The position numbers and the translations under genes are program-made. DNA of 12,601 nt from Promethearchaeota archaeon. GTDB taxonomy: Archaea; Asgardarchaeota; Lokiarchaeia; Sigyniarchaeales; SOKP01. The stretch spans positions 1-12,601 of the forward strand of contig JBHLNZ010000082.1 of the NCBI GenBank assembly GCA_048941015.1, written 5' to 3'. The notes under the pieces are model-generated. The model was not told where the DNA came from. It did not search any database and worked only from the letters and a program-made list of their open reading frames with translations. How positions within the stretch are numbered: the stretch's first letter is position 1; each line of letters begins with the position of its first letter. Below are positions 1,556 through 6,891 of this stretch, one piece after another.

Positions 1556-1617
1556 AAAAAAAAAGATAGGGTTCGATAACTCGCAAAATGAGATTTTTAC
1601 TTATTACTATTTCCTAT
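1556..1617 (-). ncRNA. Candidate structured RNA element downstream of csp1 (3' UTR motif or independent sRNA), copy 1
   Basis: Minus-strand AUAGG-AAA-UAGUA-AUAA-GUAAAA-aucuca-UUUUGC-gag-UUAU-CGAAC-CCUAU-C-U9. Folds as a long hairpin and shares ordered blocks with 6519-6585. Confidence 0.55.
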
Positions 1618-1634
1618 TTATTATTTGTTATTTC

Positions 1635-1644
1635 TGATTTATAA
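1635..1644 (-). promoter_or_regulatory. Conserved decamer TTATAAATCA, 13 nt after the csp1 stop (TATA-like or protein-binding site)
   Basis: An identical decamer lies 11 nt after the csp2 stop (6604-6613). Confidence 0.4.
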
Positions 1645-1657
1645 CTATTCATATTCT

Positions 1658-1957
1658 CTAATAACGAGGAGATCTTTTGCCACCTCGACCACCACGACTT
1701 CCACCTTTACTAAATGAACGTGCTTGGGGAGGTGCTTTTTCAGTAACCACAACGTTGCTAGCTTGTGGTCCTTTTTGACCTTCTGTAACCTCAAACTCAA
1801 CTTTATCATTTTCATTTAACGTTCTGTATTCATCATCTTTGCCTACTAATGCAGAAAAATGAACAAAAACATCACTACCGTCTTCAGAGGTTATAAATCC
1901 AAAGCCTTTTCGGCTATTAAACCATTTTACTACTCCATGCGTCAATTTTAAGACCAT
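1658..1957 (-). CDS. Cold-shock domain protein with C-terminal RGG tail (csp1)
   Basis: GVVKWFN, RNP1 KGFGFI, RNP2 [17 protein letters not shown]; tail [16 protein letters not shown]. Confidence 0.95.
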
Positions 1958-1973
1958 TTTTTCATTTTAAAAA

Positions 1974-1997
1974 AATTCTTTTATCTCTAAAAGAATT
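1974..1997 (-). promoter_or_regulatory. 5' leader hairpin of csp1
   Basis: Perfect 10-bp inverted repeat AATTCTTTTA-tctc-TAAAAGAATT, 16 nt upstream of the ATG; a counterpart lies upstream of csp2. Confidence 0.6.
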
Positions 1998-2021
1998 AGT
2001 AATAAAAAATGATGCATCTCA

Positions 2022-2038
2022 AATAAGTTTTTACTTTT
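2022..2038 (-). promoter_or_regulatory. Putative BRE/TATA promoter of csp1
   Basis: Minus strand AAAAGTAAAAACTTATT; 14/17 identical to 6966-6982 and at nearly the same distance (25 vs 24 nt) from the leader hairpin. Confidence 0.5.
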
Positions 2039-2180
2039 AGTAGGTATCAGAAAATTATAATGCTTTCAATAAAATGATGATAAGAATGAAAAAAAGGTAT
2101 TTTAAAAAACCAAAAAATTATATCATTAGATAATTAACGTAAATTATATTTTAAGTTCTTACATAACAGTATGATTAAAT

Positions 2181-4421
2181 ATGGATAATAAAAACAATTT
2201 TCAAAAAGATGATAATATAAGGATCATACGCAGCTCTACAGCTTTTGATTGTGGAGGACGTTGTCCTCTTCAATTTCATGTGAAAGAAGGAAAGATTATT
2301 CGTGTAGAAGGTGATGATTATGAAAGTCAAGATGATCAGCTTAGAACTTGCTTAAGATGTCGAGCATTTAGGCAATATGTGTATCATCCTAACAGATTAA
2401 AGCATCCTTTAAAGAGAGAAGGTCCAAAAGGTTCTGGGAAGTTTAAAAGAATTTCATGGGATCAAGCTTTGACTGAGGTTGCTGAAAAGCTTAAAGAAGT
2501 AAAAGAAAGATATGGTAATTCTAGCATTTTCTTAGCTACTGGCGGAGGATATCAAGGTGCTTTGCATGATGGAATGTTTGCTATGATGAGATTATTGACC
2601 CACTTTGGAGGTTATTCAACTCATTATGGAAATGTATCCTCTGAAGGTGCTGTATACGCCACTCAAACTCAATATGTTTCACCTTTCGTTGGACATAGTC
2701 GAACAGATTTACTCAATTCAAAATTAATAATCATGTGGGGTTGGGATCCTGCAAGAATGATTTCGGGAACGGATACTATTTTCAATTTAATTAAAACTAA
2801 AGAAAGCGGTACAAAAATAATTTGTATTGACCCAAGATACACAGACTCTGCTGTAATTTTAGCTGATAAATGGATTCCTATAATTCCTGGAACAGATACC
2901 GCTATGATGATTGCCATGGCTTATGTTATGATTGAAGAAAATCTCCACGATCAGGAATTTTTGGATAAATATACTATAGGATTTGAGAAATTCAAGGATT
3001 ATGTTATAGGAGAAGAGGATGGAGTTCCAAAAACTCCTGAATGGGCAGAAAAAATTACTTCAGTTCCAGCAGAGACAATCATTAATCTTGCTCGTGAATA
3101 TGCTAGTACTAAACCCGCTGCTCTAATGGATTGTCAAGGACCAGCTCGAAGTGCGGTCGGAGAATTATATAATCGATGTGCAATGACCTTAACTGCTATG
3201 ACTGGTAATATAGGCAAGCATGGCGGCAGTGCAGCAGGAGGTTTAATGGGGATTCCTTATGGGCATATGTTTTTTGCTTCTAGAATCCCACCACCTTATA
3301 GAAATCCTGTTGAAGAAGGTTTGAAATCAGTTCGAGGTTCATTAGATTTACAACTAAGATTTCAAGCAAGATGTCATACAAACAAAATGTTTGATGCTAT
3401 TTTAAGAGGTAAAGCTGGAGGTTATCCATTCGATGTTAAATTAGCATGGTTTGTTAATAACAACTTCCTTAATCAATTAGGGAATACAAATAAATCTGCA
3501 GAAGCTCTAGAAAAGCTCGATTATATGGTTATTTCTGAATTATGGCTGACACCTACGGCAAGATATGCGGACATAATTCTTCCAGTAACTAGTGCAGCTG
3601 AAAGAAACGATTTAACGCGACCTTGGCCTTCTGGACCATATTTTACTTCTATGAATCAAGCAATTGAACCTCTTGGAGAATGTAAGTCTGATTTAAAAAT
3701 TGCAGAAGAATTAGCAGATAAACTTGGATTAGAAGCGTTCCAAAAATATCCTGATGAAGATAATTCTTTAAAGTTTCTAATAAAATTACGTGAAGATACA
3801 AGAAAAAATATAAGAAATATCCGTAAATTTAGAGAAGAAGGAATACATCGTTTAGACATTACAGAACCCTATGTAGCTTTCAAAGAACAAATTGAAGACA
3901 TTGAAAACAAACCTTTTAACACACCCTCTGGAAAGATTGAGATCTTTTCTCAAAGAATCGCGGATTTAAATGATCCTGAAAATCCCCCTATACCAAAATA
4001 TATGGAGAGATGGGAAGGGCGTTATGATTCATTAAGTAAGAAGTATCCCTTACAACTACTCTCTCCACATCCAAAAAATAGGGTTCATTCAGAAATGTTC
4101 TTAGTAGAATGGCTGAGAGAAGTTGATCCACATGTTGCTTGGCTTAACCCAATAGACGCTGAACCAAGAGGAATTAAAGATGGTGACGAAATCTTAGTGT
4201 ATAATGATAGAGGTAAATTAACCATAAAAGTATGGATTACCGAAAGAATAATTCCTGGAGTAATAAGTATTTTTGAAGGAGCGTGGTATAATCCTGATGA
4301 AAATGGAATTGATAGAGGAGGATGTGTTAATGTTCTAACCAAGGACGCATATTCACCAGGAGGGGCTTCTGCTCTCAATTCATGTCTTGTAGAAGTGCAA
4401 AAATTTAATGGAGGAGGGTAA
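2181..4421 (+). CDS. dmsA: DMSO reductase-family molybdopterin oxidoreductase, catalytic subunit (DmsA-like), no Tat signal
   Basis: DCGGRCP Fe-S region, RLKHPLKREG..G.GKFKRISWDQA, IDPRYTDS, PGTDTA, GVPKTPEWA, TPTARYADIILP, TPSGKIEI, C-terminal molydop-binding domain. Candidate Mo-ligand Ser in YGNVSS. Confidence 0.88.
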   Translation: MDNKNNFQKDDNIRIIRSSTAFDCGGRCPLQFHVKEGKIIRVEGDDYESQDDQLRTCLRCRAFRQYVYHPNRLKHPLKREGPKGSGKFKRISWDQALTEVAEKLKEVKERYGNSSIFLATGGGYQGALHDGMFAMMRLLTHFGGYSTHYGNVSSEGAVYATQTQYVSPFVGHSRTDLLNSKLIIMWGWDPARMISGTDTIFNLIKTKESGTKIICIDPRYTDSAVILADKWIPIIPGTDTAMMIAMAYVMIEENLHDQEFLDKYTIGFEKFKDYVIGEEDGVPKTPEWAEKITSVPAETIINLAREYASTKPAALMDCQGPARSAVGELYNRCAMTLTAMTGNIGKHGGSAAGGLMGIPYGHMFFASRIPPPYRNPVEEGLKSVRGSLDLQLRFQARCHTNKMFDAILRGKAGGYPFDVKLAWFVNNNFLNQLGNTNKSAEALEKLDYMVISELWLTPTARYADIILPVTSAAERNDLTRPWPSGPYFTSMNQAIEPLGECKSDLKIAEELADKLGLEAFQKYPDEDNSLKFLIKLREDTRKNIRNIRKFREEGIHRLDITEPYVAFKEQIEDIENKPFNTPSGKIEIFSQRIADLNDPENPPIPKYMERWEGRYDSLSKKYPLQLLSPHPKNRVHSEMFLVEWLREVDPHVAWLNPIDAEPRGIKDGDEILVYNDRGKLTIKVWITERIIPGVISIFEGAWYNPDENGIDRGGCVNVLTKDAYSPGGASALNSCLVEVQKFNGGG

Positions 4422-4424
4422 AAT

Positions 4425-4982
4425 ATGCAAATCGGCTTTTATTTTGATCAAACTCGATGTATTGGATGCTCTGCATGTGCTGTAGCTTGTAAAGACTGGC
4501 ATGATATTCCAGCAGGACCAGAAAAATGGATGCGAATCTTATACAACGAACAAGGGAAATTTCCTAATGTTTTTGTAAGCTACTTAATATATCCTTGTTT
4601 TCATTGTTTAGATCCGGTGTGTATACCAGTATGTCCTGTTGAAGCTATAACAAAAAGAACTGAGGATGGAATTGTCATTGTAGATAGCGAAAGATGCTTA
4701 GGTAATGAAGAATGCGATTCAAAATGTCTTAAAGCATGTCCTTATGGTGCTCCTCAATTCGGTCCAGAAAAAGGAGCAAAAATGCGTAAATGTAATTATT
4801 GCATCGATAGATATATTGAAAATAAGCTACCCGCATGTATTGAATCATGTAGGACAAGAGCCTTAGATGCGGGTACATTAGAAGAACTCAAAATGAGATA
4901 CGGTAATATAGTGGAAGCAGATAACTTTATATATTCTGAAAGAACTAAACCTGCAATTATTTTTAAGCCAAAAAAAAAATGA
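4425..4982 (+). CDS. dmsB: 4Fe-4S electron-transfer subunit (DmsB-like)
   Basis: MQIGFYFDQTRCIGCSACAVACKDW, CFHC..PVC..VCP, C..C..ACPYGAPQF, KCNYC..R..PAC..SC..RAL. Starts 3 nt after the dmsA-like stop with GGAGGG upstream. Confidence 0.9.
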   Translation: MQIGFYFDQTRCIGCSACAVACKDWHDIPAGPEKWMRILYNEQGKFPNVFVSYLIYPCFHCLDPVCIPVCPVEAITKRTEDGIVIVDSERCLGNEECDSKCLKACPYGAPQFGPEKGAKMRKCNYCIDRYIENKLPACIESCRTRALDAGTLEELKMRYGNIVEADNFIYSERTKPAIIFKPKKK

Positions 4983-5125: not shown

Positions 5126-5722
5126 ATGGATTCATATGATAATTTACCTGATGCTCAAATTGAACCTGTTGGAGAAATTTCCAAGAAATTTTTAGATTTG
5201 GGTATTAAATCGTTTAAAGAAGCATGTATGTATGTTCATAACAGTACTTATGGCTATAATTCGAACTATAATGATAAGATGATTTTTTTTAAGGAAAAAA
5301 TGGGTAGTTGTACCATGAAACATGCAACAATTGCGGGATTAGCTGAGGAACTCAATATCCCTGTCTATAAATATGTTGGAATTTACAAATTTACCGAAGA
5401 AATTACAACTGGTGTTGACGATATCTTAAAAAAATACGAAATACCATATATACCAATGGTACATTGCTTTCTAGTCTATGAGAATTATCATTTTGACCTC
5501 ACTGAAGGTAATTATAATGGAAAGAAAAAATCTATAGATGAGTTTGTTAAAACTGAAAAGGTTGAGCCATTTATTAGCAGAATTGATGAATATAAACTAT
5601 TTAAAAAAGTATTGAAAGAAAATATATTAACTAGTAAAGAAATGGAAGGCATAACTGAGCGAACTCTTTTAAAAGCTAGAGAAGAAGGTATTAAGCTTTT
5701 AAAAGAATGTATTAAAAGATAA
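5126..5722 (+). CDS. Hypothetical protein, probable transglutaminase-like (Cys-His-Asp) fold
   Basis: GSCTMKHATIAGLAEELNIP (G-x-C ... L.IP), MVHCFL and HFDLT occur in the order of a transglutaminase-like catalytic triad. Confidence 0.55.
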   Translation: MDSYDNLPDAQIEPVGEISKKFLDLGIKSFKEACMYVHNSTYGYNSNYNDKMIFFKEKMGSCTMKHATIAGLAEELNIPVYKYVGIYKFTEEITTGVDDILKKYEIPYIPMVHCFLVYENYHFDLTEGNYNGKKKSIDEFVKTEKVEPFISRIDEYKLFKKVLKENILTSKEMEGITERTLLKAREEGIKLLKECIKR

Positions 5723-6034: not shown

Positions 6035-6421
6035 ATGCCTAAAATGAAAAAAAAAGCCAAGAAAGGAAGAAGAACCTATGGACCAAATCCAACACCAGAA
6101 ATAAGGCGCGTAAAAATGCCATATAGAAAAAATGGGGAAATGTTTGCCCGGGTAACCGATATATATGGCCAAGATCGGATGGGCGTCTATTGTGAAGATG
6201 GAAAATATCGAATGGGACGGATTCGGGGAAAAATTAAAAAAAGAGTTTGGATAAGGAAAGGAGATTTGGTCGTAATTAATCCATGGGAGTTTGAGACAGA
6301 AATTGAAGGCCAAAATGAAAAATGTGAAATATCTTGGAGATACTTAAGACATGAAATTTCTTGGTTGCAACGTAAAGATTTAATTCCAGAAAATCTGGAT
6401 TTGAATAGTATTCCCCTTTAA
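6035..6421 (+). CDS. eif1a: Archaeal translation initiation factor aIF-1A
   Basis: GEMFARV, CEDGKYRMGRIRGKIKKRVWIRKGDLVVINPWEF and WRY...WL are eIF-1A family signatures; basic N-terminal tail. Confidence 0.95.
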   Translation: MPKMKKKAKKGRRTYGPNPTPEIRRVKMPYRKNGEMFARVTDIYGQDRMGVYCEDGKYRMGRIRGKIKKRVWIRKGDLVVINPWEFETEIEGQNEKCEISWRYLRHEISWLQRKDLIPENLDLNSIPL

Positions 6422-6426
6422 TCAAC

Positions 6427-6439
6427 TTTTTTATTTTTT
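6427..6439 (+). terminator. Putative U-rich archaeal terminator after aIF-1A
   Basis: TTTTTTATTTTTT immediately after the stop codon. Confidence 0.4.
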
Positions 6440-6518
6440 ATCATAAAATTATTTATTTTGAACTTATCAGCGTATAGTAAACTTATATAAAACTTAATTT
6501 GAATATTCTAAAACATAT

Positions 6519-6585
6519 TAAAAAAAATTAAGGTTCGATAATAATCGTAAAAACTTTTTACAAAATATTATTTACTACTTTTATT
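6519..6585 (-). ncRNA. Candidate structured RNA element downstream of csp2, copy 2
   Basis: Minus-strand AAUAA-AAG-UAGUA-AAUAAUAUUUU-GUAAAA-agu-UUUUAC-GAUUAUUAU-CGAAC-CUU-AA-U8; same blocks and fold as copy 1. Confidence 0.55.
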
Positions 6586-6603
6586 GAATTATTTCTTTTT
6601 TCT

Positions 6604-6613
6604 TGATTTATAA
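6604..6613 (-). promoter_or_regulatory. Conserved decamer TTATAAATCA after the csp2 stop
   Basis: Identical to 1635-1644. Confidence 0.4.
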
Positions 6614-6624
6614 AAACCATAGAA

Positions 6625-6891
6625 TTAAAATCGGAAATTTCCTCTTCTATTATATGGATTAGGTGGAGCCTTTTCAGTAACGACTACGTTACTCGCTTGA
6701 GGTCCTTTCTGACCCTCAACTATTTCAAACTCAACTTTATCATTTTCGTTTAGAGTTTTGTATTCATCATCTCTACCAGCTAATGCGGTATAATGAACAA
6801 ATACATCTGTTCCTTCTTCAGAATTTATAAATCCATAGCCCTTACGGCTATTAAACCATTTTACTGTTCCTTTTACCAATTTTAAAACCAA
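6625..6891 (-). CDS. Cold-shock domain protein (csp2), TTG start, short Arg/aromatic tail
   Basis: [30 protein letters not shown]; 63/77 residues identical to csp1 up to KAPP (hand count); tail [11 protein letters not shown]. Confidence 0.95.

Follow-up and report, generated by a model that had tools for sequence, protein, structure and literature searches.

Two cold-shock protein (csp) genes of a Lokiarchaeal contig are both followed by the same ordered sequence blocks, which raises the question of whether these blocks belong to an RNA element maintained by selection, how widely such an element occurs and what it could do for csp expression. The window, i.e. the whole stretch of DNA analysed (12,601 nt), is one entire 12.6-kb contig of a 3.59-Mb genome with 29% G+C. 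The genes and the parts of the two copies of the element are located as follows.

1658..1957, minus strand: csp1, 99 aa, cold-shock domain and Gly/Arg-rich tail (ORF list; Pfam CSD PF00313, E = 2e-27)
1556-1644, minus strand: element copy 1, entire (sequence)
1636..1644, minus strand: upstream box UUAUAAAUC of copy 1, separated by 14 nt from the stop codon and by 18 nt from stem P1
1565..1617, minus strand: hairpin of copy 1 (predicted fold; covariance model R1, 52.7 bits; nhmmer E = 3.7e-11)
1613-1617 with 1566-1570, minus strand: P1 of copy 1, AUAGG with CCUAU
1571-1575, minus strand: CGAAC, 3' side of the internal loop of copy 1, the 5' side being of the AAAUAGUA type
about 1601-1607 with 1576-1580, minus strand: P2 of copy 1, register ambiguous
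1595-1600 with 1583-1588, minus strand: P3 of copy 1, GUAAAA with UUUUGC, apical loop AUCUCA
1556..1564, minus strand: U-tract of copy 1 (U9), separated from P1 by one C; presumed signal for the termination of transcription
6625..6891, minus strand: csp2, 88 aa, cold-shock domain (ORF list; Pfam CSD, E = 1.9e-27)
6520-6611, minus strand: element copy 2, entire (sequence)
6605..6611, minus strand: upstream box AUAAAUC of copy 2, with U5 just before it (sequence)
6528..6582, minus strand: hairpin of copy 2 (predicted fold; R1, 54.8 bits; nhmmer E = 8.6e-9)
6578-6580 with 6530-6532, minus strand: P1 of copy 2, AAG with CUU
6533-6537, minus strand: CGAAC, 3' side of the internal loop of copy 2, the 5' side being UAGUAA
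within the hairpin of copy 2, minus strand: P2, AUAAUA with UAUUAU, and P3, GUAAAAA with UUUUUAC
6520..6527, minus strand: U-tract of copy 2 (U8; sequence)

The two copies of the window

The blocks quoted in the earlier note, which had proposed a selected RNA element acting on csp mRNA, are all present: GGTTCGATAA at 1570-1579 and 6532-6541, TTACTA at 1604-1609 and 6572-6577, TGATTTATAA at 1636-1645 and about 6604-6613, and the U-tracts at 1556-1564 and 6520-6527. Both copies had been said to fold as one long hairpin on the csp sense strand. Copy 1 does so (predicted MFE of -10.2 kcal/mol, z = -3.2), whereas the fold of copy 2, whose basal stem is merely AAG/CUU, is weak (z about -0.4 to -1). 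The csp1 and csp2 paralogues are 67% identical at third codon positions, 73% in the element and 62% in the flank past the U-tract. By themselves, the two copies of the window are poor evidence of selection, and homologous loci are needed for a strong case. Searched genome-wide, the 10-mer TTATCGAACC shows no enrichment (7 matches vs 10 for a reversed control).

The genome carries two further csp genes (on contigs C123 and C109) that lack the element. The third paralogue (C123:51560-51969, minus strand) is followed by an unrelated hairpin, AUCAAGGAAAAUA...UAUUUUUCUUGAU (z = -3.7), and then by U9; its orthologue-like counterparts in the same genus (e.g. G015:C211 and G024:C14) bear the element recognized by R1. 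Some Lokiarchaeal cold-shock proteins (CSPs) have Gly/Arg-rich tails resembling those of eukaryotic Y-box proteins. Elsewhere in the window, a 198-aa ORF (5126-5722, plus strand) without a Pfam match has as neighbours a molybdopterin oxidoreductase/4Fe-4S pair (2181-4982) and aIF-1A (6035-6421). The genes csp2 and aIF-1A converge across 6422-6520 and the stop codon of aIF-1A is directly followed by its own T-runs, so that the csp2 hairpin is unnecessary as a shared terminator. A search for transcript-like assemblies yielded no recorded contigs encoding exactly csp1 or csp2.

Distribution and association with csp genes

RNAalifold returned no structure from a plain MAFFT alignment, which is poor for such A/U-rich sequences; a structure given by hand and a model-based alignment were therefore required. 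The resulting covariance model, R1, comprises 67 positions with 21 base pairs and was built from 13 copies. Nearly all csp homologues in 23 genomes of the window's genus have the same downstream sequence. R1 matches 37 of the 42 genomes of this genus and 88 of the 121 genomes sampled from its family, which represent 10 genera, with one to three copies in each; it has no match in 19 genomes from three sister families of the same order. In the window's own genome, cmsearch with R1 found exactly two copies, a count upheld by an unfiltered nhmmer search in which the third-best match has an E value of 6.5. An exact 23-nt pattern, searched in one genome per species over 185,579 species, gave 64 matches, all but one in records titled Promethearchaeota, Promethearchaeia or other Asgard MAGs. 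The same pattern occurs in at least 120 metagenomic contigs and has no match in viral contigs. The element is known from more than 100 Lokiarchaeal genomes and from many contigs of marine-sediment metagenomes. The scope suggested earlier, i.e. csp homologues across Asgard genomes, proved too broad, as the element was found in only one family of Lokiarchaeia/Promethearchaeota. An apparent bacterial occurrence was rejected: the record DATKTW010000167.1 (L101), titled 'Candidatus Nanopelagicaceae bacterium', holds a Lokiarchaeal csp locus and proved identical to a contig from a genome of the window's genus (the coordinates of the match coincide with those in G011:C167); it probably has a wrong title or comes from a wrong bin.

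Among the 75 R1 matches with flanking sequence, 74 share the strand of a csp gene and lie 42-110 nt past its stop codon. The remaining one (L055) is preceded by the last ~45 nt of a degraded csp coding sequence. This locus (L055:560-770, from G128:C1:257316-258781) is a partial duplicate of the L054 csp locus of the same genome, in which the csp remnant retains a nearly intact box, hairpin and U-tract. Likewise, 135 of the 149 exact-pattern matches in genomes and metagenomes are adjacent to csp, the other 14 being too near a contig end to be judged; none of the 135 judgeable matches lacks csp. A scan for copies beside other genes, which had been suggested, found none among the judgeable matches. 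A dispersed repeat or MITE was rejected, given that the genome has only two copies, that every judgeable copy is linked to csp and that viral contigs have none. As far as can be judged, the element is exclusive to csp genes.

In the window's genus, csp genes commonly occur in tandem arrays of two to three genes. Arrays of three genes lying about 500-570 bp apart are found in related genomes, each gene having its own promoter, 3' box, hairpin and U-tract:

G008:C21:133370-134898 (L007): three-gene csp array
G010:C4:21805-23159 (L003): three-gene csp array
G018:C38:56195-57574 (L002): three-gene csp array

Architecture, pairing and conservation

The element spans about 90 bases and consists of an AUAAAUC box, a spacer of 20-21 nt, stem P1, an internal loop, stem P2, a variable top, a C and a tract of 8-11 U. 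Single-sequence folds of nearly all copies share a common architecture, in which P1 (AUAAG/CUUAU) is separated from P2 (AUAAUAAUU/GAUUGUUAU) by an internal loop of about 6 x 5 nt; a bulged A then leads to P3 (GUAAAAA/UUUUUGC), which is capped by a small loop. At the base of the hairpin, i.e. in P1, the purine-rich internal loop and the lower part of P2, the sequence is conserved. The apex is free in both sequence and length, as it is deleted in three copies (elements of 42-52 nt) and about 30 nt longer in three others; copies with a deleted or expanded apex, which come from distant genera, keep the layout of P1, loop and P2. The stem is long and interrupted and the GC content is 0.13-0.29. In this A/U-rich context, z scores of individual sequences are often unimpressive, and those of distant variants range from -0.4 to -1.8.

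Pairing was evaluated on a model-based alignment (A6) of 70 distinct copies, i.e. 1379 paired cells. Canonical pairing is found in 93.7% of these cells, compared with 39-55% after sliding the 3' partners by one to three columns. Nine pairs are changed on both sides, versus 4.2 +/- 1.5 in shuffled alignments (1 of 500 reaches 9); cells with double changes number 21 versus 5.3 +/- 2.0 (0 of 500), and the covariation score is 0.141 versus 0.110 (0 of 500). These values reflect few independent events among related sequences, in an alignment that was itself fitted to the model. Compensatory changes include the first pair of P2 (A-U, G-U or G-C), two other pairs (U-G, U-A or A-U) and a pair of P1 that changes from A-U to G-C in csp1-type copies (AUAGG/CCUAU). 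G-U pairs account for 159 of the 1379 cells (11.5%), and the opposite strand would pair in just 82% of them. R1 gives scores of 30-91 bits on the sense strand and of at most 23.6 bits on the reverse strand. The G-U share and the sense-strand scores together show that the structure is a feature of RNA from the csp sense strand; the observation that an exchange of U-G for U-A between the two copies keeps pairing only on the minus strand thus holds for the whole family.

Conservation was compared with that of the adjacent coding sequences. For pairs of csp genes with 44% identity at third codon positions (31% being expected from composition alone), element columns are 79% identical, and codon positions 1+2 of the cold-shock domain 78%. 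In an unbiased global alignment, the score is 0.72 for the element, 0.60 for the 60 nt past the U-tract and 0.56 for a shuffled control. Conservation is highest in P1, the 3' strand of P2, the U-tract (columns 93-100% U in 70 distinct copies), the upstream box and, within the 3' loop, at A101 (100%). Pairing, conservation and linkage agree with the original proposal of a selected structured RNA that lies on the csp sense strand and is specific to the 3' region of csp. The element is a selected, strand-specific RNA structure. It had not been recognized as a described family, and indeed neither the window nor any of four homologous loci (L037, L040, L054 and L055) matched an Rfam 15 family at E <= 1 in cmscan; literature searches found no description of it.

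Upstream box and csp promoters

Of 73 distinct copies, 35 contain a perfect ATAAATC (background 2%) and 65 contain it with at most one mismatch (background 30%). The majority form is (U)UAUAAAUC, 20-21 nt ahead of P1. Most copies keep this distance between box and P1, while the spacer varies in sequence and the box lies at varying distances from the stop codon. The box resembles both the eukaryotic AAUAAA signal and the Pumilio site UGUANAUA; most copies read UAUAAAUC.

At the other end of the gene, the csp promoter, AAAAAGTCAAAA-YTTATTAT, lies about 75-80 nt ahead of the start codon and is strongly conserved across genera. The leader contains a conserved 5'-UTR hairpin (e.g. AAUUCUUU-loop-AAAGAAUU), the stem sequence of which varies by lineage while pairing is kept. 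No clear Shine-Dalgarno sequence was seen in the csp leaders of the window and of loci L002-L076. In the window, these regions are:

1958-2090, minus strand: promoter and leader of csp1, compared over loci L002-L076
6892-7025, minus strand: promoter and leader of csp2, compared over the same loci

Proposed role at the 3' end of csp mRNAs

A single base (C in 76% of copies) separates P1 from the U8-11 tract, which corresponds to the spacing between hairpin and U-tract of intrinsic terminators, and the hairpin abuts the only strong U-tract downstream of csp. Across the 2717 long ORFs of the window's genome, a run of at least seven T is found within 160 nt behind 21%. The 56 nt ahead of such runs, examined for 500 other ORFs, have a mean z of -0.16 versus -0.19 for controls; as these regions fold like controls, the element is not the generic terminator shape of this genome. 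The csp genes of the sister families have a plain T-run a few nt past the stop codon, without a hairpin. Archaeal terminators are U-tracts that generally do not require a hairpin and act with aCPSF1 (PMC8716108), and the hairpin-free ordinary terminators of this genome agree with these data (PMC8716108). In Escherichia coli, CspD binds terminator-containing transcripts, stabilizes them and attenuates termination (PMC9765468).

Judging from sequence, the element would be a csp-specific 3'-end module for termination combined with mRNA stability or regulation, a reading to which a probability of about 0.5 can be assigned. Its action can be pictured as follows. The U-tract, as the usual archaeal termination signal, would stop transcription of csp, and the finished csp transcript would thus end in the hairpin. 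The hairpin together with the box would form a gene-family-specific platform on csp mRNA. This platform could increase the efficiency of termination, could shield the 3' end of the mRNA against 3'-to-5' decay and could be recognized by an RNA-binding protein, for which the CSP itself is a candidate purely by analogy with CspD. Binding of the CSP would mean a feedback on the level of csp mRNA.

Alternative interpretations

The hairpin could instead belong to a separate small-RNA gene or to a 3'-UTR-embedded sRNA with an internal promoter, which is the main rival interpretation, possible although doubtful. The box UUAUAAAU would then serve as a TATA box, with transcription beginning about 22 nt past it, at the base that opens P1, and ending at the U-tract; the product would be a hairpin RNA of about 60-65 nt that acts either on csp or in trans. 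Of the sequence upstream of the hairpin, the box is conserved best (88-100% per position), and TTATAAAT is found at about -30 to -23 relative to P1, which is the usual geometry of archaeal TATA boxes. TATAAAT-type words are 1.6-fold enriched upstream versus downstream of genes in a k-mer test that is mildly informative, words similar to the box occur upstream of some tRNA genes, and several copies carry U4-5 immediately ahead of the box as a candidate weak csp terminator. However, the BRE-like purine stretch before the box is not conserved (positions -8 to -3 at 44-63%), the C that follows it is 95% conserved and is no TATA feature, the genuine csp promoter of these genomes is different, and 8-10 copies have the box 29-50 nt from P1 and lack a replacement. 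Moreover, the element was detached from csp in 0 of 135 judgeable matches, which speaks for a role in cis. As no U-tract lies between the csp stop codon and the hairpin in the window's genus, csp transcripts must cross the hairpin whether or not there is a second start. The small-RNA and 3'-end-module models are not mutually exclusive. By analogy with YB-1, box and hairpin may even constitute a dedicated RNP site through which CSPs would control their own mRNAs from the 3' UTR, and the hairpin may under this reading also be released as a small RNA; such a circuit is considered unlikely. That the element might be a mere strong terminator, copied along with csp by duplication or gene conversion and without any sequence-specific role beyond stopping the polymerase, would fit the hairpin lying directly against a long U-tract in every copy, the near-identical 3' regions of csp neighbours in tandem arrays and the freely varying top of the hairpin. 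This view is nonetheless quite improbable, since loop and box are conserved like codon positions 1+2 across genera in which synonymous sites are near saturation, since the flank directly past the U-tract is at random level and since other terminators of the genome need no hairpin.

Two further readings concern the hairpin itself. The earlier note had recognized in the internal loop the sarcin-ricin/loop-E motif (AGUA opposite GAA), which would be the functional core of the element and a protein-recognition site. The loop UAGUA/CGAAC, described as invariant, is indeed shared by both copies of the window in the correct polarity, A101 is invariant, A7 and A10 are 93-94% conserved, and AGUA and GAA occur together in 22 of the 39 distinct copies from outside the window's genus. 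Across the family, however, the invariance is lost: the two diagnostic G positions hold a G in just 64% and 67% of copies, and the variants UAUUAA/CUAAC and UAGCAA/CAAAA persist in the window's genus amid otherwise strong conservation. With AGUA and GAA co-occurring in 26 of 70 distinct copies, of which that genus contributes only 4 (out of its 31 copies), the motif fails as a defining feature, and its being the functional core is very unlikely. The sarcin-ricin loop may be the ancestral state but is dispensable, and the element is not classed under this motif. As the hairpin is rich in A/U and G-U pairs and attached to a cold-shock gene, it could also be thought to act as an RNA thermometer that forms only in the cold. 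For copy 1 and two homologues, the hairpin is nevertheless predicted to be the MFE state throughout the range of 4-45 C, with a predicted stability of -16 to -23 kcal/mol at 4 C and still of -5 to -10 kcal/mol at 37 C; no melting is predicted within a plausible habitat range, which makes a thermometer extremely unlikely.

Several other identities were tried and rejected. The 5' side of the consensus loop, UAGUAA, has no GA step and does not fit a kink-turn (L7Ae site). A long-range pairing of GUUAG, past the stop codon, with CUAAC of the 3' loop is possible in 9 of 73 copies versus 3.3 by chance; eight of the nine belong to one close subclade, and copies of the CGAAC type show no matching change. 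Inspection by eye of the box against the 3' strand of P2 and the csp 5' UTR revealed no consistent complementarity or covariation. A small ORF starting from an AUG past the stop codon is not conserved. A tRNA or tRNA-like element, for which GGTTCGA on the plus strand might have been taken, was dismissed because ARAGORN finds no tRNA or tmRNA in the window. Over all contigs of the genome, which is rated 95% complete, ARAGORN finds just 16 tRNA genes, suggesting that many tRNA genes contain introns or are otherwise atypical; no promoter box at a fixed position emerged from the upstream regions of these 16 tRNAs.

Comparison with known systems

The element is a previously undescribed motif of a known general kind, the terminator-associated 3' hairpin; what is unusual is that it is tied to one gene family and that its host is an archaeon. 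Like bacterial Rho-independent terminators and 3' stabilizing stem-loops, it has a hairpin directly ahead of a U-tract where a gene ends, and the expected effects, i.e. termination and protection against 3' exonucleases, are shared with bacterial intrinsic terminators. In contrast to the short G/C-rich stem of the latter, its stem is A/U-rich with a large internal loop; it is conserved in loop and stem base across genera and found with one gene family only, in an archaeon with hairpin-free ordinary terminators (PMC8716108). The archaeal U-tract terminators that act with aCPSF1/FttA (PMC8716108, PMC7515710) likewise have U8-11 at the presumed 3' end but need no upstream structure, whereas the element adds a conserved hairpin and an upstream box. 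Archaeal terminators are thought to be hairpin-free; here, a structured 3' module with a conserved sequence is bound to a single gene family. It is a candidate new Rfam family and a marker of csp loci in this lineage, and would offer a handle on post-transcriptional control in Asgard archaea, be it termination efficiency, 3'-end protection, possible CSP autoregulation or a 3'-UTR sRNA.

To our knowledge, conserved cis-acting RNA structures in archaeal 3' UTRs have seldom been described. The metazoan histone mRNAs end in a stem-loop bound by SLBP, which is likewise a 3'-terminal hairpin of one gene family with a conserved stem base and conserved flanks; there is no similarity in sequence or size, and the likeness would be one of logic only. 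Among bacterial 3'-UTR-derived sRNAs, those of type I, such as DapZ and MicL, have an internal promoter. With them the element shares a promoter-like box within the 3' region and would share a small hairpin RNA that uses the terminator of its parent mRNA, whereas the promoter of the element is putative and has no BRE. Post-transcriptional control is also attached to other mRNAs for cold-shock-domain proteins: E. coli cspA carries a cold box and thermosensor in its 5' UTR, and YB-1 is autoregulated via its own 3' UTR. Both are unrelated to the csp 3' element, the former being located in the 5' UTR and the latter being eukaryotic. If the RNP-site interpretation were true, a eukaryote-style 3'-UTR autoregulatory circuit would exist in an Asgard archaeon.
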